From assembly GCA_019752815.1 (NCBI GenBank), contig JAIELQ010000005.1:140816-204815 (forward strand): a DNA stretch of 64,000 bases. The letters are read 5' to 3'. Made by a program: the position numbers and the translations under genes. Of this stretch, positions 6,008-53,213 are shown one piece after another; position 1 is the stretch's first letter, and each line of letters starts with the position of its first letter. The notes below the pieces were generated by a model. The model worked only from the letters and a program-made list of their open reading frames with translations. It made no database searches and had not been told where the DNA came from. This DNA comes from Patescibacteria group bacterium (GTDB lineage: Bacteria > Patescibacteriota > Minisyncoccia > Phycocordibacterales > UBA918).

Positions 6008-6361
6008 TTATTCTTTGTGCCAACGGCGATTGAGATAGTAGCCCATACCATACTCAGCCATAATGATGTTGGTATATCCTGTGGCGTCCTTGATCTTCTT
6101 TTTTATTCTTGAAACATACGCGTCAATCGACCGAAGTCGTTGCCTTCCACGTTTGTACGGGCCGTGTTTCTGGGCTTCTAGCAAAGTTTCCCGGCTGAAA
6201 ATTGTATCCGGCTTAGACAAAAGCAGGCTAAATATCATCATTTCTCGCACGGTGAGTGCAACTGGCGTTCCTTTTATGTATACATCAATTTCACTACACC
6301 AGATGTCTTTGACGAGGGGCTTTGTCTTCCGGTCGGGTACGATATTGCTATGCTGAAGCAT
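6008..6361 (-). CDS. Stand-alone OmpR/PhoB-type winged-helix DNA-binding protein (trans_reg_C domain only, no receiver)
   Basis: 117 aa; LTVREMMIFSLLLSKPDTIFSRETLLE...IDAYVSRIKKKI...GMGY matches the OmpR C-terminal effector domain pattern. Confidence 0.6.
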   Translation of the reverse strand: MLQHSNIVPDRKTKPLVKDIWCSEIDVYIKGTPVALTVREMMIFSLLLSKPDTIFSRETLLEAQKHGPYKRGRQRLRSIDAYVSRIKKKIKDATGYTNIIMAEYGMGYYLNRRWHKE

Positions 6362-14833: not shown

Positions 14834-15484
14834 ATGAAAGCATTAGTTTTAGTTTTGATCGTGGTGGTGGTTGTGAGTGCGTATTTTTATTATGATTTTT
14901 CGCCGGCTGATACACCAACTGAAGTACCGGTAGTCGAGATTGAAGAAATTTCTAAAACTCCACTTCCTCCGACAACTGCTCCGGCCCAAATCGCTGTGTT
15001 TGAAAACAGTGATTATAACTTCACCTTTAACTACCGCATCAAGCCCTATGGCTACTCAATGTTTGAAAATACGCTCGATCAGAATATTGACATGGGTACG
15101 CTATTTGGCGTGACGCTAATGCGTTCCGATGACTACAATGCGGTGGTTAAAGCCGCAGCCGAAGGTAACGCCATGGACGGACCACCATCAATGTCAGTGT
15201 ATGTGTATAGCGCCTCTAAAATTACTGATCTAGAAGCCTGGTTGATTGATAACAAAATGATCACCAATTGTATGGATGGGGAAGTGACAAATACGATGCT
15301 GGCTGGCAACGACGCCAAAAGTTGTTTGTGGGATGGATTGTATCCCGGTGTAACCGTGGCGCAAATTAGTGACAATAAAATCTATCTCCTAGTAGGTACC
15401 AGAGAATCAATGGAGACCGAAGGTGGCTTCTCATATGAAAAAGATTTTAATGAGCTGGTGACAACGTTTACCATTACTCCGTAG
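14834..15484 (+). CDS. Membrane-anchored hypothetical protein
   Basis: N-terminal TM helix (LVLVLIVVVVVSAYFYY) followed by a soluble domain. Confidence 0.45.
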   Translation: MKALVLVLIVVVVVSAYFYYDFSPADTPTEVPVVEIEEISKTPLPPTTAPAQIAVFENSDYNFTFNYRIKPYGYSMFENTLDQNIDMGTLFGVTLMRSDDYNAVVKAAAEGNAMDGPPSMSVYVYSASKITDLEAWLIDNKMITNCMDGEVTNTMLAGNDAKSCLWDGLYPGVTVAQISDNKIYLLVGTRESMETEGGFSYEKDFNELVTTFTITP

Positions 15485-16370
15485 TAAGTAGTCCTTCAGC
15501 AGTTAAGTAATTAATAATCCCATTGGCAATACCCTCAGCAATGAGGGCTGGTTGGGTGGTCATGAGTGTGCGGTCACTGGCATTGGTGAGAAAACCCATT
15601 TCAACAATGGCTGATGGGGTCTGCGGGTGAACCGCGTGATCATAGCGTCTCCAGTTAAACGCATAGTACCCACTCATTCTCCGAGTGAAGGCCTCATCTC
15701 GTTTAAGGCCGGTTGCTTGTTCATAGGTGGGGTACATGGCATCTACTAGTCGTTGTGCTTTTCCAGAATAATCTGTGCGTGGTGGGGCAATTTTAAAACC
15801 AGAGATTGAAGTGTCAGTGTTGCCATCAGCATGAATGGAGATAAACGCGTCTGCTAAATAATCAATGGGTACGGTCACCGGCAATAGGGTAACTTCAATC
15901 CCGGCATTAGTGAGCAATTTAACTACTTCCTCGGCGACCGCCAGGTTCACTTCTGTTTCAGTGTAGCCTCCAGCGGTGGCACCACTACTGCCTGTTAATC
16001 CCGATAATTCATTGGGCAAATTTTCACGTTGCCAGTGACCTGCCTGAATACCGACTCGTGGGGGACCAGCCGGTCGAGTTGTTGGGCCGTACACGGCGTA
16101 CTCTTCAGCATTCATTGGTTCCCAGTACGCTGCCCAACGAGTACGCCCATCAGGATTTGTTGGTTCGGGAATCGGAGGTAGGTAGGTGACTGATGTTGAG
16201 GCTTCTGGGTAATCAGTCGGTTCAGTGATAACTGAACGGGTAGTGTCCGCATCATCTATAAATTCCATTTCGTCATTGTGTGAATCACGAAATGAAAATT
16301 GCCCGGCAGCATTCAGCCACCAAATTCCGATACCAACGATTACGAGTGCACCAAATACAAAATATTTCAT
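15474..16370 (-). CDS. N-acetylmuramoyl-L-alanine amidase (Amidase_3 family)
   Basis: N-terminal TM, GIQAGHWQ..., ...FISIHADGN..., ...IVEMGFLTNASD motifs. Confidence 0.7.
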   Translation of the reverse strand: MKYFVFGALVIVGIGIWWLNAAGQFSFRDSHNDEMEFIDDADTTRSVITEPTDYPEASTSVTYLPPIPEPTNPDGRTRWAAYWEPMNAEEYAVYGPTTRPAGPPRVGIQAGHWQRENLPNELSGLTGSSGATAGGYTETEVNLAVAEEVVKLLTNAGIEVTLLPVTVPIDYLADAFISIHADGNTDTSISGFKIAPPRTDYSGKAQRLVDAMYPTYEQATGLKRDEAFTRRMSGYYAFNWRRYDHAVHPQTPSAIVEMGFLTNASDRTLMTTQPALIAEGIANGIINYLTAEGLLTTE

Positions 16371-27756: not shown

Positions 27757-27786
27757 GCTCCGCCAAAATTTTTTGGCGGAGCAATT
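27757..27786 (-). terminator. Perfect 14-bp-arm palindrome acting as a terminator after the minus-strand ORF 27786-28097
   Basis: TTGCTCCGCCAAAA-TT-TTTTGGCGGAGCAA, overlapping the stop codon. Confidence 0.55.
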
Positions 27787-28097
27787 CATCTTACAATTTT
27801 AAGGTGAGAGTTTTCATTTGCTGGTGGGACTTCCTCGTCCTCAAGACCATCATCGATGCAGTGACTGAACTCCTCAATCATTTTTGGATCAATTTTAAGA
27901 ATGGTTGCTCCACCAGTCAACTTCCAGCCAGCTTTACCATACTTTGATTCGGTATGCTTTACAATAAATCCCTTTGTCGCTTCCCTCTTGCTTGTAGGAT
28001 GGTCATAGATCATTGTGCGCATAAAAACACCTTCAGCAATTGTATTGCCCTCGTTGTCTTCAAGGTACTGCAAACAACTAAAGACATAGTACGTCAT
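27786..28097 (-). CDS. Hypothetical protein (103 aa)
   Basis: ORF with an acidic C-terminus and no recognisable motif. Confidence 0.4.
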   Translation of the reverse strand: MTYYVFSCLQYLEDNEGNTIAEGVFMRTMIYDHPTSKREATKGFIVKHTESKYGKAGWKLTGGATILKIDPKMIEEFSHCIDDGLEDEEVPPANENSHLKIVR

Positions 28098-43836: not shown

Positions 43837-45513
43837 TTAACTCACCAGTGGCAGTGTGAGTACAAACGTTGAGCCACGTTGCTCACCTGCTGAACTACAG
43901 GTAATGTCACCACCCATCGCGCGGGCCATTTCTCGGGCCACAAATAGTCCCAATCCGGTGCCGTTAATGTTTACACTGTTAGCATTTTTAGCCCGACTGA
44001 ATTTCTGGAAGAGGTCATTAATAGTTTCAGGACTCATACCAATACCAGTATCAATAACATTTACAAATAACTGCTTGCGCCCAATATCATCGTACACAAA
44101 TACAGTGATACTTCCCTTTTGGGTGTACTTAAGTGAATTGTTGATGAGGTTATGGAGTATCTGTTGGGTTTTTGAAATATCAGCGTGCACAATACCTTGT
44201 CCCCGCATATCGGACTTAAAGAGTAACAGTAGTCCCGATCGGGTGGCTTCAGGACGCAAGTCGTCAACGATATGTTCGGCTTGCTCCCGGAGATTAAAAT
44301 CAGTATATGTGTACTTCATATTGCCAGATTCGATACGTGAGACATTAAGGAAGTCTTCAATCGAAAACGCCATCAATTTGGCTGATTCATGAATCCGTCC
44401 CAACACCTCGGTCATTTTTTCTGGTGCAGGCCCATAGTTGCCATCAAGAATCATTGACGTATAGCCACGAATAGCCGTCAGTGGACTCCGGAGTTGGTGC
44501 GAAGCAATCGACACAAATTCTGATTTTTGTTGGTCCACAATCCGTAATCGTTCGTTGGTTGATTCCAGATTAGTCGCGAGTTTCTCAATTTCTTCACGTT
44601 GGGTCACTTCACTGCGGACACTTTTGATTAAGAGTGTGCCGAGTACCGAGAAGAACAAAATAGTTCCCACTGCAATAATCTGCGCATTTTCAATTGACCG
44701 CACCAAGAGTAGTGAACACAACAAAATCAACTGTCCGGCCATCAAGGCCTCGGTCGCAAGGAGCTTAATTTTAAATGTTTGATACCGTACGAGGATGTAC
44801 CCCAAAAATGCTACAAATATTGGCATCCCAAATAAACCAATCTGTCCCGATTCCCAGTCACCGTAGAAGCTTCCGATGATGTTGCCAATTGAGAATGAGA
44901 GTAAAAATAACAAGATGCCTGCGGCAACAAGAATGGTCTCACGACGTTCCCGGCGCTTGAGTCTCACTTCTGCAATCGTGAGTAACAAGATTAATCCTAC
45001 AAATAAAAATTCAAAACCGTACACGTAGTACTGCCACAAAGGTCCTTCGGTGGCGTAACGTAAACAGTTGGTAAAATCAAAGTTTACTAGATTTAGTTTG
45101 GTGTGTCCGAATAAAATCAGAGGTAAGAACATTACAAAGATACCCAACTCAACTTTAAATGGTGGAAAAGATTTATTAAAGAAGGCGTATATGAAATAGA
45201 ATGCTCCGACGTACATCAAAAGCTCAAAGTATATTAGCGTGGACCAGACAAACATAATCACGTCCGATCGTTCTGAGGCCCAGATAATGAGGTCAAGGAA
45301 ACACCAAATAGCGAACATCACGGTGGTAAACAGGAGTGCCTGAGCTGCTTTATTGCGCACGTTGGCACGTAATACAAAAATTGCAATAATTAATCCCGAT
45401 ATAGATGGTAAAAAGTGTGCGTAGTACTGGAAACTCCCAATCAGGTTTTCTGACAGAATTAAGTAGGTGGCAGTACCCCAGGAACAAATTGTGGGATCAA
45501 CGATGTTTAGCAT
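43837..45513 (-). CDS. Sensor histidine kinase with a multi-TM N-terminal sensor domain (HK-1)
   Basis: About 7 N-terminal TM helices, a coiled coil, H-box FVSIASHQLRSPLTAIRGYTSMILDG, and HATPase N/G boxes (LINNSLKYT..., IDTGIGM, GTGLGLFVAREM). Confidence 0.85.
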   Translation of the reverse strand: MLNIVDPTICSWGTATYLILSENLIGSFQYYAHFLPSISGLIIAIFVLRANVRNKAAQALLFTTVMFAIWCFLDLIIWASERSDVIMFVWSTLIYFELLMYVGAFYFIYAFFNKSFPPFKVELGIFVMFLPLILFGHTKLNLVNFDFTNCLRYATEGPLWQYYVYGFEFLFVGLILLLTIAEVRLKRRERRETILVAAGILLFLLSFSIGNIIGSFYGDWESGQIGLFGMPIFVAFLGYILVRYQTFKIKLLATEALMAGQLILLCSLLLVRSIENAQIIAVGTILFFSVLGTLLIKSVRSEVTQREEIEKLATNLESTNERLRIVDQQKSEFVSIASHQLRSPLTAIRGYTSMILDGNYGPAPEKMTEVLGRIHESAKLMAFSIEDFLNVSRIESGNMKYTYTDFNLREQAEHIVDDLRPEATRSGLLLLFKSDMRGQGIVHADISKTQQILHNLINNSLKYTQKGSITVFVYDDIGRKQLFVNVIDTGIGMSPETINDLFQKFSRAKNANSVNINGTGLGLFVAREMARAMGGDITCSSAGEQRGSTFVLTLPLVS

Positions 45514-45692: not shown

Positions 45693-47354
45693 TTAAATAA
45701 GTGGCAGTGTAATCGTAAAGGTGGAACCGAGACCTTCCCCATCTGACGTTACCGTAATATCGCCACCCATCGCGCGAGCCATTTCTCGGGCGACAAATAA
45801 TCCTAATCCGGTACCCATGATGTTCGCTGAACTGGCCACTTTGGCGCGAGCAAATTTACCAAACAGTTTTTGCAGACTTTCTGGACTTAGTCCGAGGCCG
45901 GTATCGATGATATCGACATACATCTTTTTGGTTTTAACATCGTCGTGGGCATAGACTGTAACACTTCCTTTCGGCGTATACTTCAACGCATTGTTGATAA
46001 GATTATGCAGTATCTGTTGTGTCTTCCCCGCGTCCGCATGAACCATTCCGGTGCCAGTCATATCAGATCGGAACATAAGCAACAGTCCACGACGCACCGC
46101 GTCTGCCCGCAGGTCATCAACTACATGCTCGGCCTGTTCCTTGAAATTCATATCCTTGTAGTCGTACTTCATGTTACCTGATTCAATCCGAGACACCTCC
46201 AAAAAGTCATCAATCGACGATGCCATAAACACTGTTGATTCAGCAATTCGCCCCAGTGCCTCGTTAGCTTTATCCGGCAACTTCCCAAAACTCCCCTCCG
46301 TCATCATCGACACATATCCCCGAATAGCTGTAAGCGGACTACGTAATTGATGTGAAGCAATCGAAACAAACTCCGATTTTTGTTTGTCCAAAATCTGCAA
46401 CCGTTCATTGGCTTTTTCCAGCCCAACAGCCAAGCGTTCAATTTCTGCTTTTTGTTCAAGTTCACGACGCATGACTCTGGAAAGAATTATTCCTAGAAAT
46501 CCAAAAATGATAACAGTAATAAAAATAATTGGGCGTGCGTAACTCATGTCACGAAATAGCAACATTGAAAACATTAGTATCCATAATGCTGAAATAAGTA
46601 TTTCAGTAAATAGAGTTTTTGTGTGAAAGGCACGGTATTTAATTATTGAGTACGATACAAGGCCGGCAAATAATGGCATTCCAAAGAGTTTGTATTGTTC
46701 ATAATAAGGACCAAGGTCAAAGAATAGCGTGAAGTTACCTGCAGTAAAAAATGCTAAAAATATAAACGTAGAAATACCAATGAACAGAAGCTGGCGGCGT
46801 TCGGTTTTCTTTTCTATCCTGCTCAAGCCTTTAATTATAAATAGTACAACTATAAAAAGTAGAAAAACTTCTACAAAGTACATGTATTGAATTACAATCC
46901 CCTCGAATGCCCCTGTGTCACAATCTGGTGACAAGCCAATCACGTTCAAACTTGTATGAGCAAATAATAGAATCGGAACAAGAAGTAGTGAGAAACAAAC
47001 TTTCATCCATGTAGGCATATCAACTTGCCTGTTACTAAAGAGGTATACCAAGTAAACGGCAGAGAGGTACATTAAAAGCTCAACTGGAACAATCAGTGAC
47101 CAGAAAAACACCACCATTTCAGGTGTCGGTGAGGCCCATAAGATTAAGTTAAAGTATACCCATGTCGCAAATAGAACTGTTGTAACAAAGAGAACTCTGT
47201 TCGCAAGCTCTTTTGGATTACTGATAAGGACCTGGAAACCTAAAAACAATGAAATAACAAGTGGTAGTACATGTGTGTAGTAGATAAGCTTACCGACGTT
47301 TTCAGAAAATATGAGTAGGGCTGCGCTCCCCCATTCGCAAGGATTATCTATCAT
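45693..47354 (-). CDS. Sensor histidine kinase, paralog of HK-1 (HK-2)
   Basis: Same architecture; H-box FVSIASHQLRSPLTAIRGYVSMMTEG; N/G boxes LINNALKYT, IDTGLGL, GTGLGLFVAREM. Confidence 0.85.
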   Translation of the reverse strand: MIDNPCEWGSAALLIFSENVGKLIYYTHVLPLVISLFLGFQVLISNPKELANRVLFVTTVLFATWVYFNLILWASPTPEMVVFFWSLIVPVELLMYLSAVYLVYLFSNRQVDMPTWMKVCFSLLLVPILLFAHTSLNVIGLSPDCDTGAFEGIVIQYMYFVEVFLLFIVVLFIIKGLSRIEKKTERRQLLFIGISTFIFLAFFTAGNFTLFFDLGPYYEQYKLFGMPLFAGLVSYSIIKYRAFHTKTLFTEILISALWILMFSMLLFRDMSYARPIIFITVIIFGFLGIILSRVMRRELEQKAEIERLAVGLEKANERLQILDKQKSEFVSIASHQLRSPLTAIRGYVSMMTEGSFGKLPDKANEALGRIAESTVFMASSIDDFLEVSRIESGNMKYDYKDMNFKEQAEHVVDDLRADAVRRGLLLMFRSDMTGTGMVHADAGKTQQILHNLINNALKYTPKGSVTVYAHDDVKTKKMYVDIIDTGLGLSPESLQKLFGKFARAKVASSANIMGTGLGLFVAREMARAMGGDITVTSDGEGLGSTFTITLPLI

Positions 47355-47527
47355 ATATTGTTGTTATGAAAATAGAAGTCTAATGCACTTGGCTCCTCCT
47401 CGTCTGCTGTAAATTGTTTGAAATTCTTTTCAACAATAATATTTACATATGTAGCACCGACAGATAAAAGAATAAAAAAGACAAGAAAAAAATAAAATAT
47501 TAAGCTATTTTTTTCGTGTCGGTTCAT
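47351..47527 (-). CDS. Small single-TM peptide (58 aa) translationally coupled to HK-2 by an ATGA overlap
   Basis: MNRHEKNSLIFYFFLVFFILLSVGATYVNIIVEKNFKQFTADEEEPSALDFYFHNNNI. Its stop TGA overlaps the HK-2 ATG; it starts 4 nt after the SET gene stop. Confidence 0.35.
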   Translation of the reverse strand: MNRHEKNSLIFYFFLVFFILLSVGATYVNIIVEKNFKQFTADEEEPSALDFYFHNNNI

Positions 47528-47531
47528 ATCA

Positions 47532-48014
47532 TTATGTTACAGACAACTTTTTACTCCTCAGTTTCTTGAAAAACGTTGGAATGTATGGAAGGTGGCTCCT
47601 ATACACTTTCTCAGGTAGTCTTTGTATTGAATGAATTTTCTTTCTGCATGAATGAGTTTTGCAGGCGCAAGACATTTCCCAGAGCAAATCACCGTCACTC
47701 ATCGAATAGTCAAAAGTTAGCTCTGTGTCTGGAGCGATACTCTTTAATGCAATGACTTTTTTTCTACCAACAATAGCAGTATTAGGTTCACAGCTATGGT
47801 TAAAATACCTCCAGATCGTATTTTTAGGATCTAGCCAAATAGTATCTGTAATTCCATACCATAAAGGGATACTCGAAGCTTCCTTGGCTGTTTGGGTTTT
47901 CTTCCTGACTAACTCACCTTCTAGGAAAGCGATGTGTTCCCCTTTCTTAATTTTCTCTGAAGAAAATATCCCCTTTCCCTCAATCCTACTTTTTCCGACA
48001 TACAGCTTTTTCAT
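47532..48014 (-). CDS. SET domain protein (putative protein-lysine methyltransferase) with a Cys-rich post-SET region
   Basis: GKGIFSSEKIKKGEHIAFLEGEL (N-SET/GxG), NHSCEPN (the canonical SET NHSCxPN pseudoknot motif), ELTFDY, and post-SET CACKTHSCRKK. Confidence 0.8.
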   Translation of the reverse strand: MKKLYVGKSRIEGKGIFSSEKIKKGEHIAFLEGELVRKKTQTAKEASSIPLWYGITDTIWLDPKNTIWRYFNHSCEPNTAIVGRKKVIALKSIAPDTELTFDYSMSDGDLLWEMSCACKTHSCRKKIHSIQRLPEKVYRSHLPYIPTFFKKLRSKKLSVT

Positions 48015-48019
48015 GGTTC

Positions 48020-48856
48020 TTAAATTGTAGCATGAACATTTTTTGAATTATGATTAATCCCACGTTTTGCCCTCAATGCAAAAATACCTACTAATGCATG
48101 TAAAAAGGCATTGCTTAATGGGTAAAACATTAATGGATGCCAAAGTGCATCATGTGTGATGAATGTTACGATTCCCAGTAGTGCGTATGCCAGAGCCCAA
48201 ATAAACCAAGGTGAAGCAGCTTCGGTGTAATCAGAGTTATAGGTTGTGCGAAGTATTGGGTAAAAGGCTGGAAATGTTGATAGGTTAGATAAAAATAAGA
48301 ACAGAACAACAAATGTTTCTTTTGTTTCAATTTCTAAATTTCCGAACAAAATTAAGAACCATATAGAAACATAGCCAATGGTAATTACTATGTCAGAAAC
48401 AAATGAAAACTTGTCATATTTATCATTAGGCCACCAATCTTCTGGCCACCAATTTGTCGGATCATTTTTTCTGGCTCTTACCCAGCATCTATAAGAAACA
48501 ATGATTGCAAATACAGCACAGACTGACGGTAGAATAAGTTCTGGAAAAGTGGCGTCAGTATCCCATTCGAGAATTGTCAGAATGGCGGTACCATAGGCAA
48601 ACATGAACCAGGTAACCGGATTAGGGTCAATGTCTTCATGAAGTATATAAATTAGGTAACCGACGACTTGTAAGATGCCGGCAATAATACCCAGGAGAAG
48701 TAAAATTGAGATACTGCTTAATGCTTCTGTAGAAGAAAGTTTGTAGAACGCATATGTTCCGATACCATACAGCGTTGTAAAGGTAATAAAAAAGTAAACT
48801 AAAAAACGCACCGGAAACTCAAATGCGAAATTAATTACTTTGGCCACTAGGTTCAT
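48020..48856 (-). CDS. Trp-rich polytopic membrane protein, paralog A (family unknown)
   Basis: 8 TM; motifs TWFMFAYGTAILTILEWD, WWPEDWWPND, NLSTFPAFYPILRTTY. AT-rich codon usage like the rest of the window. Confidence 0.55.
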   Translation of the reverse strand: MNLVAKVINFAFEFPVRFLVYFFITFTTLYGIGTYAFYKLSSTEALSSISILLLLGIIAGILQVVGYLIYILHEDIDPNPVTWFMFAYGTAILTILEWDTDATFPELILPSVCAVFAIIVSYRCWVRARKNDPTNWWPEDWWPNDKYDKFSFVSDIVITIGYVSIWFLILFGNLEIETKETFVVLFLFLSNLSTFPAFYPILRTTYNSDYTEAASPWFIWALAYALLGIVTFITHDALWHPLMFYPLSNAFLHALVGIFALRAKRGINHNSKNVHATI

Positions 48857-48967
48857 TTCTACAGTATAGAGTATTTTATCAATATATTTTGAAATGTGCG
48901 GGGATTTACATATTTAGAAAATAAAAAATTCACCCGACGCCATATTGTTATGGCGTCGGGTGGTGTT

Positions 48968-49744
48968 TTACTCGGCAGGGTTCATTACCGCCGGTTTTGG
49001 TTCTCTTCCGGCAAAGATGGCCATGAGACCATGCATTACGGTGTTGATGACCGGATAGGACATCAGCGCCAAGAATGCATAGAAGCTGACGTCCCAAGTA
49101 AGCGGCGAAGCGCTTATCGGCCAGACCATGCCGTCGCTTCCATGTACCCAGGTGGGTACGAGGAGTAATGCATAGGCCACGGCCCAGATTGTCCACGGAC
49201 GAGCATCCTCTTTTTCCGGATGGGCCCAGGCCTGCCGCAGGATTGGCACGAAGTTCGGAAACGTCGTCAGGTTTGACGCAACCAGGAAGGCAATAACCCA
49301 CCACAGGTGCGTGTTCCCTTCTGTCGTTCCAAACAGAGTGAAGATCCAAAGAACGGTGTAGCAGATGGTCAGCGCGATGTCAGCGGCAAATGCCTTGCCA
49401 TCGGTTTCCTTCCACTCGACTTTCCATTCTTGTGGCCACCACTCCCCCGTCAGACGGAGGTTTGCGCGCCAGATTCCAACTGCCACCCCAATGCCCCCGA
49501 GGGAACAAATGATAGGCAGCAACAGAACACTGAATACATTCATCCACGAAACATCGGCAGCCGCTTCCTTCCACATGGAGTCAAGCTCCATGACGGTCAG
49601 AAGTGCTGTTCCGTACGCGAACATGAACCACGTCAGCGGTTCTGCTTCCTTGCCTTCCTTACGGATGACAAGGATATAGTAAGCGATGTATCCAGCAAGC
49701 TGGAAAATTCCGGCCGCAAGGCCAAAGTAAGTCGCATCGACCAT
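48968..49744 (-). CDS. Trp-rich polytopic membrane protein, paralog B, encoded in a GC-rich block
   Basis: Shares the motifs TWFMFAYGTALLTVMELD, WWPQEWKVEWKE, NLTTFPNFVPILRQAW with paralog A at moderate identity. DNA composition is markedly GC-richer than the flanks. Confidence 0.55.
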   Translation of the reverse strand: MVDATYFGLAAGIFQLAGYIAYYILVIRKEGKEAEPLTWFMFAYGTALLTVMELDSMWKEAAADVSWMNVFSVLLLPIICSLGGIGVAVGIWRANLRLTGEWWPQEWKVEWKETDGKAFAADIALTICYTVLWIFTLFGTTEGNTHLWWVIAFLVASNLTTFPNFVPILRQAWAHPEKEDARPWTIWAVAYALLLVPTWVHGSDGMVWPISASPLTWDVSFYAFLALMSYPVINTVMHGLMAIFAGREPKPAVMNPAE

Positions 49745-49837
49745 TTCGGCCTCCTATTGTTTTTTGACCAGACTGTCAATACTATAGCATACTTTAACAA
49801 AAAAAGTAAACCCCACACCCCAAAACCTGTTGATAAA

Positions 49838-50320
49838 TTAGTTTTCTATAATAATCACTCTCTCACTTTCAGTTGGTTCCTCAAATGCATCGATTGTTTG
49901 CTGAACTAACTCCCTACTAACTTTTGATCTTGTTGGATTCAGGTTGTTTTCTTCCCAACGTTGCCAAATTGTTTCGGTAGATGTTTTTACATAAATCACC
50001 TTACACTCAACATTGTTAGCTCTTGCTATCGCACGCAGTTTATCCCGACTAGCTACAGTATGATTGGTAGAATCATACAAAACCGACTTCCCTGCTTGTA
50101 GCGCACCAGCTGTCAGCTCATAGGAGGTATTAAATATCACATCCCACTCCTGTGTATCAGGAAGCTTGTTGTCATCCCAGCTAAAACCATTTGATTCAAA
50201 CAGCGAGTCAATACTTATCAGTTCAATATCAGTTTCAGCTACAATTTGTCGAGCAAGATAAGACTTCCCGGAATATGGATGTCCGCATAAGATAAATAGA
50301 GTACATTTTGAGTGCTGCAT
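49838..50320 (-). CDS. P-loop NTPase, predicted small kinase (AAA_33/zeta-toxin-like fold)
   Basis: Walker A CGHPYSGKSYLA at the N-terminus; 160 aa. Confidence 0.55.
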   Translation of the reverse strand: MQHSKCTLFILCGHPYSGKSYLARQIVAETDIELISIDSLFESNGFSWDDNKLPDTQEWDVIFNTSYELTAGALQAGKSVLYDSTNHTVASRDKLRAIARANNVECKVIYVKTSTETIWQRWEENNLNPTRSKVSRELVQQTIDAFEEPTESERVIIIEN

Positions 50321-50338
50321 TTTTTGAAACAGTAAAGT

Positions 50339-51172
50339 CTATTTTAGTTTAGTCGTCTTAACGAATTCTTTAACTTTTTTAACATCAATTCTTTGTTCAA
50401 ATCCTTTTACGTTTCTTTCACCAGCCTTATTTGTGCCTGACTTTAAAGCCGTGCTCACAATTGCTCCATTTGAATTTTCCAATAAACCTTTAATGTTATC
50501 AACGCTCGCTCCACTGCCAACCAAAATTGGGAAATCTTGAATATTCTTACGTAGTTTAGAAACGGTCTCAGCAGTAGGTGCTTGTCCTGTCCAGTCGCCT
50601 GTAACTATTACAGCATCTGCCCCAGCTTTGATTGCTTTTTTACTTGCCGCTTCAAGCGTGTGAGTCGTTATGTGTTTTGAGTGCTTAACTAACACATCAG
50701 CAAATAGAGCGACATTATTTGCTAGATACAGTTTTTGAATCGCTTTAACATGCTTTGGATTTCCTGTGATGACACCACAATATGGTTCAACCGTATCGAC
50801 AAATACTGGAATACGAATAAATTTTAAATCATATGTATGAGCAAGAGCAAAAGCAACCTCATAATCATTCCAAAGGACGCTGGCACCGAGCGGTAATCTT
50901 GTATGTTTTTTTAGCTCGTTTATGAGATAACCCATTGCAATAGCTACTGAGGAATCAATTTTTTCTTTTGAAAGTCCGTAGTTATTCTCAATAAAAATAC
51001 CGTCAACCCCACCTGCTTCAAAGGTCTTTAAGTCAGCAATAGCGTATTTAAGTGCATGCTTGTATCCTGCGAAATCATCAAATCCCAACAGTGGTGGAAA
51101 ATGTAAAGCTCCAATAACTATATTTTTGTCTTTTTTAAAGATTTTTTTAAGAGGGTTTACCATGCTGCACAT
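50339..51172 (-). CDS. BtpA/SgcQ family TIM-barrel protein
   Basis: IVIGALHFPPLLG, FIENNYG, VLVKHS, AVIVTGDWTGQAP, LVGSGASVDNI, NGAIVSTALK follow the BtpA family pattern. Confidence 0.6.
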   Translation of the reverse strand: MCSMVNPLKKIFKKDKNIVIGALHFPPLLGFDDFAGYKHALKYAIADLKTFEAGGVDGIFIENNYGLSKEKIDSSVAIAMGYLINELKKHTRLPLGASVLWNDYEVAFALAHTYDLKFIRIPVFVDTVEPYCGVITGNPKHVKAIQKLYLANNVALFADVLVKHSKHITTHTLEAASKKAIKAGADAVIVTGDWTGQAPTAETVSKLRKNIQDFPILVGSGASVDNIKGLLENSNGAIVSTALKSGTNKAGERNVKGFEQRIDVKKVKEFVKTTKLK

Positions 51173-51190
51173 TATAGCGCATTATTTAAG

Positions 51191-51961
51191 TTACAGCTTT
51201 TGCGCTTTAAATCCGAGAATATCTTTATATCTATTATTTCCAAATAGTATTGGATAAAAGTCTTCTTCTGCGATGATTTCTTCATTTGAGTTTGTTGTAC
51301 AAACGACTTGACCCACATTTATTTGTTTAAAGTTTTCAATTTCTTTAGACAAAACGTAGTCTCCTTCAAAATTCTTTTTAAATGCATCGTACACGTCATA
51401 TACAGAACTTGTTGATACTTCGCGTGGATTAGAAAAAGGATTTTGATTAATTAGTCCGTAACTCATTAGAATAGCAGCTATATCATGAACTGTTGCATTC
51501 ATAACGGATTCACTATCATCTAGCCCGTACTCAAACGCAATGCCAATTTTTGCTTGTGAGACTAGAGCATTGTCGCTCTTGTGTCTCATGATTAATACTT
51601 TTGGAGGAGAAATTAACTCAAGCACTCGTTTAGTCTCTTCATCATATTTTGTAACAATAATCATTGAGTTCTCACCCAAATCAGTTGTTTTTGTAGAATG
51701 TATATCAATCACTAAATCAGCCTGTAAAATTTTTTCAGATAGTTCAAATGCCCTTCTCTCCTCATAATTACCATCCGGTTTACCAGGAAAAACACGATTG
51801 AGATCCCCTTCAGTAAAAGGCACCCCTAGTTCAGAAGCTTTTGGATTACCAACAATAAATTCAACTTGGTTAGGGTACAAGTTTAACTTTCGCAATTCTT
51901 CAATAACCTGAAGTCCAATTCTTTCATGTCCATGAGTCGACCCAATAATTAAAATTTTCAT
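51191..51961 (-). CDS. Succinylglutamate desuccinylase/aspartoacylase (AstE/AspA) family zinc hydrolase
   Basis: MKILIIGSTHGHERIG (the HxxE zinc site), DLNRVFPG, DLVIDIHST. Confidence 0.75.
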   Translation of the reverse strand: MKILIIGSTHGHERIGLQVIEELRKLNLYPNQVEFIVGNPKASELGVPFTEGDLNRVFPGKPDGNYEERRAFELSEKILQADLVIDIHSTKTTDLGENSMIIVTKYDEETKRVLELISPPKVLIMRHKSDNALVSQAKIGIAFEYGLDDSESVMNATVHDIAAILMSYGLINQNPFSNPREVSTSSVYDVYDAFKKNFEGDYVLSKEIENFKQINVGQVVCTTNSNEEIIAEEDFYPILFGNNRYKDILGFKAQKL

Positions 51962-51983
51962 TTTAGATTTACGTGATTGTAAT

Positions 51984-52508
51984 TTAATTTAAATACAAAA
52001 AGACCATTGGGAGGAGGAGCCACCAGAAGAACCATTCTTTGGGTGAAAACAGTGATGCTATCGGGGTGCCGGGGGTGACGAATTCCGTGACGGGTAAGAC
52101 GTGAAAACTGTAGGCCATAATGAGGATGGTGCCAGCGAGTGCGAGGAGGATTTTTTTGAAGAAACTCTCGAATTTTTTCTCCCGATAGGCGTCGGGCATG
52201 ACGCGGGCAACTAATATTGTGGCGATGGTAGTGAATATGGCAAACAGCACCATCTTCCCTACAGCCAGACTATGTTCGCTCGCGTTATTCGGGAGGAAGG
52301 TGTCGTAGTATGGGAACTCGAGTGAAATCAAGAGCGCCAGGTACAATCCAAAAATGATATTGATGAGGGACTGCCGCCCACGCACAATGGCCCACACGAT
52401 GAAGAATCCAAATACACAAAAGAGGTAGATTAATTCCTGAAGCAGACTAAGAACGTAAGCCGTGTCCATGTCTTTATATTCTATACCCCATCCGACAATT
52501 TGTACCAC
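51984..52508 (-). CDS. Hypothetical membrane protein (5 TM)
   Basis: Hydrophobic profile only. Confidence 0.45.
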   Translation of the reverse strand: MVQIVGWGIEYKDMDTAYVLSLLQELIYLFCVFGFFIVWAIVRGRQSLINIIFGLYLALLISLEFPYYDTFLPNNASEHSLAVGKMVLFAIFTTIATILVARVMPDAYREKKFESFFKKILLALAGTILIMAYSFHVLPVTEFVTPGTPIASLFSPKEWFFWWLLLPMVFLYLN

Positions 52509-52522
52509 TGAGCTGTGGTGTA

Positions 52523-53213
52523 AATCTTAGGGGTTAAACCCCTAAGATTGTTATACTTAAATTAATGCCACGAAAAATAATCCCACTTATTACTGGTGAT
52601 ATATATCATGTGTACAATCGGGGTGTAGATAAACGTGAAATTTTTTTAGATAAAGAAGATTACCTCAGATTTTATATATCGTTGGATTTCTTTAATGTTA
52701 TTGAGCCTGTGATAAATTTTGATAGTGCAAAAGTAAGAAAAGATAGAAATCTTAAGGAAGATAAATTAGTTGAAATTCTCGCATATTCCCTGTTACCAAA
52801 TCACTTCCATTTAATATTGCAACAAAATGTAGATAGAGGAATAAGTGAATTTATGAAGCGAATTTCTGGTGGGTATACTAGTTATTTTAATTCAAAACTT
52901 GAGAGATCGGGTTCCTTACTTCAAGGTACATTTAAAAAAGTACCAGTTCAGAGTCAAGAACAATTACAGTATTTAATGGCTTATGTAAATGAAAATCATT
53001 TTGTGCATGGTATAGAAATTAAACGTGAAATTTGTCACTCGAGCTCACTGCACTACCAAGGTCTTAATAAAAGCAAAATAATTAATCAATCAAATGAGAA
53101 GTATAACTTTGAAAGTAATGTACTTCTAGCAAAAGACATCTACCAAAAAAGACGAAGTTTAAAGTACTCAGATTTAATGGAAAACTAATCTTAGGGGTTT
53201 AACCCCTAAGATT
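52523..53213 (+). mobile_element. IS200-like/RAYT transposase unit: a HuH tyrosine transposase gene flanked on both sides by near-identical palindromic hairpins
   Basis: Left hairpin AATCTTAGGGG-TTAAA-CCCCTAAGATT (52523-52549). Right hairpin AATCTTAGGGG-TTTAA-CCCCTAAGATT (53187-53213) overlapping the transposase stop. No other copies seen in the window. Confidence 0.7.
52565..53188 (+). CDS. IS200-like / REP-associated tyrosine transposase (RAYT, TnpA_REP)
   Basis: GDIYHVYNRGVDKREIFLDKEDYLRFY..., then HuH motif LPNHFHLILQ, and downstream Tyr-containing YLMAYVNENH. Confidence 0.7.
   Translation: MPRKIIPLITGDIYHVYNRGVDKREIFLDKEDYLRFYISLDFFNVIEPVINFDSAKVRKDRNLKEDKLVEILAYSLLPNHFHLILQQNVDRGISEFMKRISGGYTSYFNSKLERSGSLLQGTFKKVPVQSQEQLQYLMAYVNENHFVHGIEIKREICHSSSLHYQGLNKSKIINQSNEKYNFESNVLLAKDIYQKRRSLKYSDLMEN

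Follow-up and report, generated by a model that had tools for sequence, protein, structure and literature searches.

Genes whose base composition stands out from that of their genome are routinely read as horizontally transferred, and acquired DNA is usually AT-richer than its host. Among membrane proteins, the KDEL receptor and the PQ-loop, SWEET and PnuC proteins are built as 3+1+3 helix bundles, and polytopic sensor domains such as 7TMR-DISM, MASE and 5TMR-LYT occur in histidine kinases. Minimal SET methyltransferases, with an MLL-type SET and a post-SET region, are found in bacteria and viruses; one bacterial SET enzyme, BurB, methylates free methionine (PMC12542666). Here we describe two adjacent, related genes, A and B, in a 64,000-nucleotide stretch of Patescibacteria DNA (the window; positions 140,816 to 204,815 of contig JAIELQ010000005.1, with all positions below given in window coordinates). 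Both encode membrane proteins, and B is conspicuously GC-rich. We infer that the peculiarity of B is a conserved, actively maintained compositional and RNA-structural trait of one paralog in a seven-transmembrane (7-TM) family linked to a SET-domain protein and a histidine kinase. The known kinds on which we draw are gene-specific composition bias and membrane sensor modules.

A first-pass annotation of the window had described A and B as tandem, Trp-rich homologs with eight transmembrane helices each, and had proposed that B is a xenolog from a higher-GC donor rather than the product of a recent local duplication.

Results

Composition of genes A and B

The products of A and B are homologs, with 38% identity over 246 columns (BLASTP, E 4e-46), and the three motifs on which their relationship had first been recognized (TWFMFAYGTA.LT, WWP[EQ][DE]W and NL[ST]TFP[AN]F.PILR) are all present in both. 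They are identical to the database proteins K2P47_02015 (A) and K2P47_02020 (B), listed as hypothetical proteins of a Patescibacteria metagenome-assembled genome (MAG), and neither has a match in Pfam (E ≤ 0.1) or NCBIfam. Both are rich in Trp, as described, with 17 residues in B (6.6%) and 11 in A (4.0%). The count of eight helices in each has to be revised, since AlphaFold models show seven membrane helices in B (AF2; predicted local distance difference test, pLDDT, 91; predicted TM score, pTM, 0.88) and 1+7 in A (pLDDT 88). Two insertions, in loops predicted to face outward, set B apart from A.

The GC contents of the two genes are not similar (0.367 for A and 0.544 for B, against 0.433 for the whole window), and GC1/GC2/GC3, the GC contents at the three codon positions, are 0.416/0.373/0.312 in A and 0.548/0.448/0.637 in B. 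Over the window, the GC content of 777-bp stretches peaks at B (0.548; mean 0.433, standard deviation 0.034), and the GC3 of B ranks first among the 73 open reading frames (ORFs) of the window (mean 0.40, standard deviation 0.07; z ~3.4–3.7). The GC-rich block consists of the B coding sequence and its terminator hairpin; GC falls to 38% in the 80 nt upstream and to 33% in the B–A spacer. The shift extends to the protein, with a share of glycine, alanine, arginine and proline (GARP) of 0.21–0.27 in B versus 0.17–0.22 in A. The additional ORFs in other frames of B, attributed from the start to its GC-richness, are by-products of composition: the open stretches are not longer than in synonymous shuffles, which preserve protein, codon usage and GC, and they are not conserved in ten orthologs. 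An overlapping or antisense gene in any of the other five frames was rejected on the same grounds.

Persistence of the GC3 excess

The GC3 of B exceeds the mean of its neighbors by +0.12 to +0.47 in ten genomes and is the highest of the locus in nine of them, with the adjacent A at background. A metagenome scan added eight B-type genes with scorable neighbors, one of which (L070) is near-identical to that of L057; the remaining seven are GC3-rich by +0.09 to +0.35, and A-type genes lie at or below background. B is GC3-richer than its host in all 17 loci and never poorer, at values of 0.53–0.81 on backgrounds of 0.30–0.64, and each time it ranks first or close to first in its locus. A regional GC effect was rejected, because DnaJ, DnaK, the conserved 161-aa gene, the histidine kinase and the tryptophanyl-tRNA synthetase show no GC3 excess; the deviation from background (dGC3) is +0.013 for DnaJ, +0.013 for DnaK, −0.008 for the histidine kinase and +0.029 for the 161-aa gene. 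Several single-copy family members of other Patescibacteria clades are also GC3-rich (L028, L030, L058, L026, L037 and L032).

How old is the excess? Between the window and L003, L062 and L063, the proportion of synonymous differences (pS) in B is ~0.70–0.79, synonymous change has come close to saturation both in B and in its neighbors, and identical residues of B share a codon just as often as codons drawn independently would (z −0.4 to 1.0). With synonymous sites saturated between distant genomes, a donor's composition could not have survived passively. In L061, B has a GC3 of 0.80 on a background of 0.33, next to 0.79 in L003, at a pS of 0.40 between the two. An amelioration test found no decay of B GC3 (0.53–0.81) across synonymously saturated lineages, and none in L061. 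Since the excess is present in every genome examined and synonymous turnover is complete between the more distant ones, it is not a residue: each B gene keeps up its own GC excess rather than retaining that of a donor. Between close genomes, more synonymous identity is kept in B (z 6–8) than in A (z 0–4), which fits either constraint on silent sites or a younger coalescence.

Codon usage, RNA folding and expression signals

Third positions of B carry C at 0.35 and G at 0.25, against background frequencies of 0.23 and 0.15. In NNR and four-fold codons, B uses AAG at 0.62, CAG at 0.67, CTG at 0.44 and CCG at 0.57, and the ribosomal-protein/DnaK block uses AAG at 0.32, CAG at 0.27 and CTG at 0.06. 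A preference for C in NNY codons (ATC, TTC, AAC) is common to both and more extreme in B. The ribosomal-protein genes of the window have GC3 values of 0.33–0.47. Classical codon adaptation as the sole cause was rejected, given that B prefers G in NNR codons and the ribosomal block A.

The B message folds more strongly than its composition predicts. Compared with synonymous shuffles, 16 of 16 B-type orthologs have negative folding z scores (−1.5 to −8.4, mean ~−4.1; window B, −4.8), the mean for 11 A-type orthologs is ~0, and the scores of 15 other window genes lie between −2.9 and +1.4. With dinucleotide shuffles as the null, window B scores z −6.7 and window A −1.0. An embedded structured RNA was rejected as an explanation: a search of B against Rfam gave no match at E ≤ 1, and RNAalifold on ten orthologs (−25.6 kcal/mol, covariation term −3.1 over ~1000 columns) showed no conserved covarying structure. 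A short GGCC...GGCC hairpin at 49702–49719, ~25 nt into B (codons G-L-A-A-G), is retained in ten of ten orthologs, where its outer pair has undergone three double changes; this element may merely follow from the conserved peptide.

B is also set apart by signals around its coding sequence (Table 1). The promoter-like site lies ~35 nt upstream of the start codon, and a CTTTACTTTT...TGCTATAGT/TATAAT arrangement is found upstream of B orthologs in L001, L005, L060, L061, L063 and L057. The anti-Shine-Dalgarno pairing of B is the second strongest of the 73 ORFs, at −10.2 kcal/mol compared with a median of +0.4, which is rough because mechanical assignment was used for the start codons of all ORFs but B; no such pairing is seen for A, SET or the kinase, and GGAGG is conserved upstream of B in orthologs. 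The hairpin after the B stop codon stands at the same place in nine of ten orthologs with differing stem sequences, and in several relatives it alone makes up the B–A spacer (27–53 nt). It occurs once in the window, so a dispersed REP-like repeat was rejected as its source. The conserved promoter-like site, strong Shine-Dalgarno sequence and conserved post-stop hairpin mark B as a predicted expression unit of its own, and the hairpin-only spacer of several relatives suggests that A and SET are read through an attenuating or stabilizing element. With start codons so assigned, few ORFs of the window have a recognizable Shine-Dalgarno sequence, strong exceptions including B, 27786–28097 and 6008–6361.

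Orthologs, phylogeny and dynamics of the locus

Eight further Patescibacteria loci (L001, L003, L005, L060–L063, plus duplicate assemblies) share the gene order dnaK, dnaJ, (161-aa gene), B, A, SET, small ORF, histidine kinase. In total, ~17 Patescibacteria loci carry B-type genes in the same slot (dnaJ, 161-aa gene, B, hairpin, A, SET, small ORF, histidine kinase), and identity to window B falls from 87% to 48% among the further loci. In a bootstrapped neighbor-joining (NJ) tree of 83 family members, the only type of tree built, B-type sequences form a Patescibacteria-only clade with a bootstrap of 100, and a wider B group that adds L030, L056, P0024 and P0025 has a bootstrap of 94. The A clade is supported at 86, and the node joining the A to the B group at no more than 34. 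The high-GC alphaproteobacterial members fall outside the B group, a placement on which an alphaproteobacterial donor was rejected, and no higher-GC donor lineage appeared among the 83 members. The sole GC-rich host of a B-type sequence is L056, nested within the Patescibacteria B group. B protein divergence between genome groups broadly tracks that of DnaJ and A, and B evolves more slowly than A in several genome pairs.

The claim that B is no recent local duplicate thus stands: the copies are not each other's closest relatives, and 38% identity together with own orthologs in the same tandem in at least eight other genomes argues that A and B did not arise by recent duplication. They are best read as ancient paralogs. 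The higher-GC donor is not supported, in view of the 17-locus excess, the synonymous saturation and the Patescibacteria-only clade; B does not nest in a different lineage, and stands apart from the high-GC Alphaproteobacteria. The dissimilar GC of the copies and their not being nearest relatives, by which the xenolog proposal was originally to be judged, do not refute it but are insufficient tests of it. An old tandem duplication would be the simplest origin, because the tandem occupies a slot that single-copy relatives also use; an old insertion is the alternative. Tandem family pairs of other clades, neither A- nor B-type, also precede SET in L027 (5974–7509) and L038 (727–2145), and these independent pairs indicate that tandem duplication has happened more than once in the 7-TM family.

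The locus is variable among close relatives. L057, L018, L062 and L063 have DnaJ proteins that are 96–98% identical and flanks that are 82–87% identical at the DNA level; L057 has B only, L018 A only, and L062 and L063 both genes, with the B of L063 44% identical to that of L062. Between these last two, identities are 97% for DnaJ, 86% for A, 44% for B, 40% for SET and 63% for the histidine kinase. In these four genomes, the stretch that runs from the 161-aa gene to the tRNA-synthetase genes is hypervariable, an island bounded by conserved flanks. Across genomes, SET and its neighboring kinase occur in two co-varying types whose distribution is patchy relative to the DnaJ tree, a pattern compatible either with paralogs having been lost differentially or with alleles having been exchanged.

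L056 is a 62%-GC contig labelled as a Xanthomonas sp. MAG. Its B-like gene is 75% identical to that of L030 and has a GC3 of 0.68 on a background of 0.71. In the segment 1987–8425, this gene and a 230-aa SET gene convergent with it are flanked by a large serine recombinase on one side and an ImmA/IrrE–HTH pair on the other; the segment is a probable integrative mobile element carrying 7-TM and SET genes. Among IMG/VR viral contigs no member of the 7-TM family was found, and phage carriage of the family was discarded as an idea.

The 7-TM family and its partners

The family is small: a threshold of E ≤ 1e-3 yields 467 representatives from 1.84 billion clusters, with hosts in two phyla, Patescibacteria and Alphaproteobacteria. 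A SET gene follows the family gene in ~46 of 54 loci, and a histidine kinase is a neighbor in 41 of 54, mostly downstream on the same strand. In Alphaproteobacteria, the C-terminus of the 7-TM domain is fused to SET (L040, L045, L054, P0185 and others) or to CHASE4 with or without HisKA (L024, L022, P0156). These C-terminal fusions suggest that the 7-TM C-terminus is cytoplasmic and that the domain works physically with the SET and kinase outputs; the 7-TM protein probably serves a methyltransferase/kinase module as its membrane partner. Most of the 24 invariant residues are Trp, Tyr, Gln, Glu, Asp, Asn or His within helices, as would be expected of a ligand pocket. In Foldseek searches, the best match of the A model is the KDEL receptor (E 0.018, probability 1.0, TM scores 0.41/0.51), followed by SWEET, cystinosin and PnuC; KDEL receptor chains score E 0.018–0.15 with TM scores of ~0.5 on the target. 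These matches are a weak indication of a KDEL-receptor/PQ-loop-like 7-TM fold. The PQ dipeptide is not present at the equivalent loop in the A/B family alignment.

The SET neighbor carries all of the motifs that such a catalytic domain would need, namely GxG (GKGIF), NHSCxPN (NHSCEPN), ELxFDY (ELTFDY) and the post-SET Cys cluster (CACKTHSC), and the A stop codon lies 5 nt ahead of its start codon. Its nearest solved relatives are the MLL/KMT2 SET domains (MLL1, E 5e-9 over residues 6–126); BurB is a weak match (E 9e-5). SET genes beside a 7-TM gene systematically have AT-rich third positions (dGC3 averages −0.064 and is below zero in 84% of 37 loci) and, opposite to B, are often the lowest-GC3 gene of their locus (in the window, L003, L014, L017, L027, L029–L032, L034, L039, L058, L059, L062 and L063). 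A gene of 45–61 aa is called at the place of the small ORF in L001, L003, L005, L060, L062 and L063. A PADLOC search for defense genes gave no match for A, B, SET or the small ORF, and for the kinase only weak PDC-M43B matches to the ATPase region; a defense system was rejected on this outcome.

Upstream of B follow, in order, AAA_33 kinase, BtpA and AstE/AspA-like genes (GC3 0.24–0.32), the 174-aa gene and, beyond its far side, an IS200-like (Y1_Tnp) gene (GC3 0.22); all but the 174-aa gene are AT-rich, and this filling sharpens the GC contrast with B. L003, L005 and L063 have no genes or other genes between the 161-aa gene and B, and L001, L060 and L062 have different inserts; those of relatives include SpeE+DUF2617, saccharopine dehydrogenase and PhD/ParE. 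It is the AT-rich block, rather than B, that looks recently acquired.

Elsewhere in the window, a 149-aa ORF without a Pfam match at 37549–37998 (GC 0.52, GC2 0.56) has a folding z of −2.5, and an Amidase_3 gene at 15474–16370 (GC 0.48) one of −2.9; these two are the genes besides B that fold better than their synonymous shuffles.

Table 1. Features of the A/B locus, in window coordinates
Feature	Positions	Strand	Description	Basis
Gene B	48968..49744	-	258-aa ORF; 7-TM, Trp-rich membrane protein; B-type subfamily; 54% GC, GC3 0.64	
Gene A	48020..48856	-	278-aa ORF; paralog of B; 1+7 TM, the extra helix being N-terminal; composition at or below genome background	
Promoter-like site for B	49781..49810	-	TTTACT, 18 nt, TG-TATAGT; extended -10; putative function	Consensus scan
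Shine-Dalgarno AGGAGG	49750..49755	-	5 nt ahead of the B ATG	Sequence
Terminator/attenuator-like hairpin	48931..48962	-	Perfect 14-bp GC-rich stem and T-run directly after the B stop codon	Terminator scan
SET-domain methyltransferase	47532..48014	-	160 aa	PF00856, E 1.6e-13
Small single-TM ORF	47351..47527	-	58 aa; overlaps the histidine kinase start by 4 nt	
Sensor histidine kinase	45693..47354	-	Multi-TM N-terminal half, HisKA and HATPase_c; conserved downstream partner of the cassette	Pfam
Second, paralogous histidine kinase	43837..45513	-	In tandem with the first; same tandem pair in L001	Pfam
AT-rich, lineage-specific filling	49838..53188	.	Between the 161/174-aa gene and B, plus IS200-like gene	Pfam, GC3
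174-aa membrane protein	51984..52508	-	Ortholog of the 161-aa gene, which precedes the cassette in 32 loci	

Discussion

We propose the following model for the locus. A and B would be ancient 7-TM paralogs in a cassette consisting of B, hairpin, A, SET, small TM ORF and histidine kinase, held at a fixed slot downstream of dnaK–dnaJ in a clade of Patescibacteria. Selection would act on the whole B messenger, favoring a stable, highly structured, Shine-Dalgarno-dependent mRNA that probably yields more B than A–SET product. Such selection would hold the GC of B up and pull its amino-acid usage toward GC-rich codons, making the GC-richness and the need for a strong Shine-Dalgarno sequence parts of one messenger design. 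The 7-TM protein may be a membrane ligand-binding partner of SET and the histidine kinase, acting as a sensor or transceptor, with B as a constitutive form with enlarged outer loops and A as a form translationally coupled to SET. Taken as a whole, this reading seems to us evenly poised between right and wrong. A bolder version, in which an abundant KDEL-receptor-like 7-TM receptor steers a SET lysine methyltransferase and a kinase, with selection on the whole messenger overriding genome composition clade-long and the system shared, and in part fused, in Alphaproteobacteria, is rather doubtful.

Several observations weigh against the model. The higher abundance, stability and output of the B mRNA are themselves something we infer. 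The excess folding of B has no conserved positions, and the regions of strongest local folding differ between orthologs; two other window genes of above-average GC also reach z ~−2.5 to −2.9, and the folding could be a side effect of something else. The ribosomal-protein/DnaK block favors C in NNY and A in NNR codons, a pattern that B, favoring both C and G, does not follow. The fold assignment is weakened by the B model, for which Foldseek returned no significant match, by a profile search against PDB sequences that gave nothing relevant, by the lack of any Pfam or PDB sequence match for the 7-TM family, and by the comparison of its halves, in which hhalign places PNPxTWFMFAYGT of the N-terminal half in register with ExxxPWxxWxxAY of the C-terminal half at a P of only 0.04–0.055. 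Finally, the cassette undergoes allele replacement among close relatives, so that its inheritance is not strictly vertical; B may have some horizontal history, and to that extent the earlier xenolog proposal is favored.

Could the GC of B be foreign after all? If a higher-GC donor was the source of the B lineage and B alleles have been repeatedly re-imported or exchanged, each resident copy could be young. The composition of B is atypical enough for this (GC 0.544 against 0.433; GC3 z ~3.4–3.7), the shift affects all three codon positions as well as amino-acid usage, and the joint enrichment of G- and C-ending codons looks compositional in origin. The near-identical genomes with B only, A only or a B that is 44% identical, the B-like gene of L056 beside a serine recombinase with a GC3 matching its GC-rich background, and the higher synonymous identity of B than of A in close pairs, if it reflects younger coalescence, point the same way. 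In related genomes, however, the locus generally has a B, and not one of ordinary composition: it is GC3-rich in ~17 loci, even if a few close relatives are without B (L018) or have a B of a different type (L063). B is GC-richer not only than its host each time but than any Patescibacteria background carrying it; it always sits in the same slot with a divergence that follows DnaJ and A between genome groups; and its GC3 in L061 is undiminished compared with L003 despite the low background and the synonymous divergence between them. Save for the single L056 sequence, itself nested in Patescibacteria, no GC-rich lineage has a B-type clade, and no family member was found among IMG/VR viral contigs. 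Repeated import also does not predict folding beyond composition-matched shuffles, and we consider it quite unlikely. GC-biased gene conversion would instead make the cassette a recombination hot spot in which B, as the best conserved gene, is homogenized and biased repair raises its GC. It would accommodate a hypervariable cassette between flanks that are 82–87% identical, the two patchily distributed SET/kinase types, the lower synonymous divergence of B than of A among close relatives, and the rise of both G- and C-ending codons with the drift toward GARP residues. It does not lead one to expect an adjacent A, SET and kinase at or below background, with SET usually at the bottom of its locus, or a GC block that stops sharply at the B coding sequence, and it predicts neither the folding excess nor the conserved Shine-Dalgarno sequence and hairpin. 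We regard it as unlikely, if somewhat less so than repeated import. Both are minority explanations, kept alive by horizontal replacement at the cassette, and neither explains why B alone is GC-rich, why it always lies above its host and why it folds better than controls. Ordinary translational selection, with a highly expressed B using the preferred codons of the genome, would suit the strong Shine-Dalgarno sequence, the promoter-like site, the terminator, the preference for C in NNY codons shared with the ribosomal-protein/DnaK block and the slower evolution of B than of A in several pairs. It meets the choice of G rather than A in NNR and four-fold codons, ribosomal-protein genes that reach a GC3 of only 0.33–0.47, and folding z scores that codon choice does not explain because the shuffles retain codon usage. 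G-ending codons are, besides, probably not the optimal ones, and we think this explanation the least probable of the three.

What is the function of the 7-TM protein? The main rival to the sensor or transceptor, which we favor as a partner of SET and the kinase, is a PQ-loop/SWEET/PnuC-type transporter of a small molecule, such as a free amino acid or amine, that SET methylates, with the kinase merely regulating the operon. Patescibacteria depend on imported metabolites, the structural neighbors other than the KDEL receptor are all transporters (SWEET, cystinosin, PnuC), and the invariant Trp, Tyr and acidic residues could form a cation-binding pocket. The weak match of the window SET to the methionine-methylating BurB (PMC12542666) would also be in keeping with a small-molecule substrate. 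This SET is closer, however, to the protein-lysine MLL type, fusion of the 7-TM domain to CHASE4-HisKA kinases better fits sensing, and no biosynthetic genes are conserved around the module. A transporter thus seems a possibility worth keeping in view, on the improbable side. Our literature searches returned nothing relevant on an association of SET with PQ-loop or other membrane proteins, or on codon usage in Patescibacteria.

The locus bears on more than one question. As a composition outlier that is a conserved, gene-specific trait, B is a warning for methods that call islands from composition, and it offers a clean natural case for whole-messenger selection in very small genomes. An unannotated 7-TM family that in two phyla is tied to SET and a sensor kinase, through gene order as well as fusions, suggests a membrane-coupled methylation or signaling module. 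This could be tested in a cultured host: the alphaproteobacterium Caulobacter segnis CC215 carries a family member followed by a SET-like ORF (L052, 5911–7214).

How does the locus compare with the systems that it most resembles? With the 3+1+3 bundles of the KDEL receptor, PQ-loop, SWEET and PnuC proteins, the A/B family has in common seven helices, a predicted cytoplasmic C-terminus, conserved aromatic and polar residues within helices and perhaps a weak in-register likeness of helices 1–3 to 5–7; unlike them, it has no Pfam, NCBIfam or PDB sequence match (including PF04193, MtN3/SWEET and PF04973) and no PQ motif. Fusions to SET or histidine kinase domains are not known to us from any protein of that group. 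The window SET resembles the minimal bacterial and viral SET methyltransferases in its motifs and Cys cluster, and differs from them in being coupled to a 7-TM protein, to which it is fused in Alphaproteobacteria, and in its link to a kinase. Like 7TMR-DISM, MASE and 5TMR-LYT, the family can supply a polytopic N-terminal domain in front of CHASE4-HisKA or other outputs; unlike these sensor domains, to which it is unrelated in sequence, it is mostly a separate protein, and its usual partner is SET. In the manner of the compositional islands that are read as horizontally acquired, B is a gene-sized block with deviant GC, GC3 and amino-acid usage. It differs from them in that it deviates upward in GC, and in that its anomaly is common to orthologs in the same slot, outlasts synonymous saturation and is accompanied by excess RNA folding.

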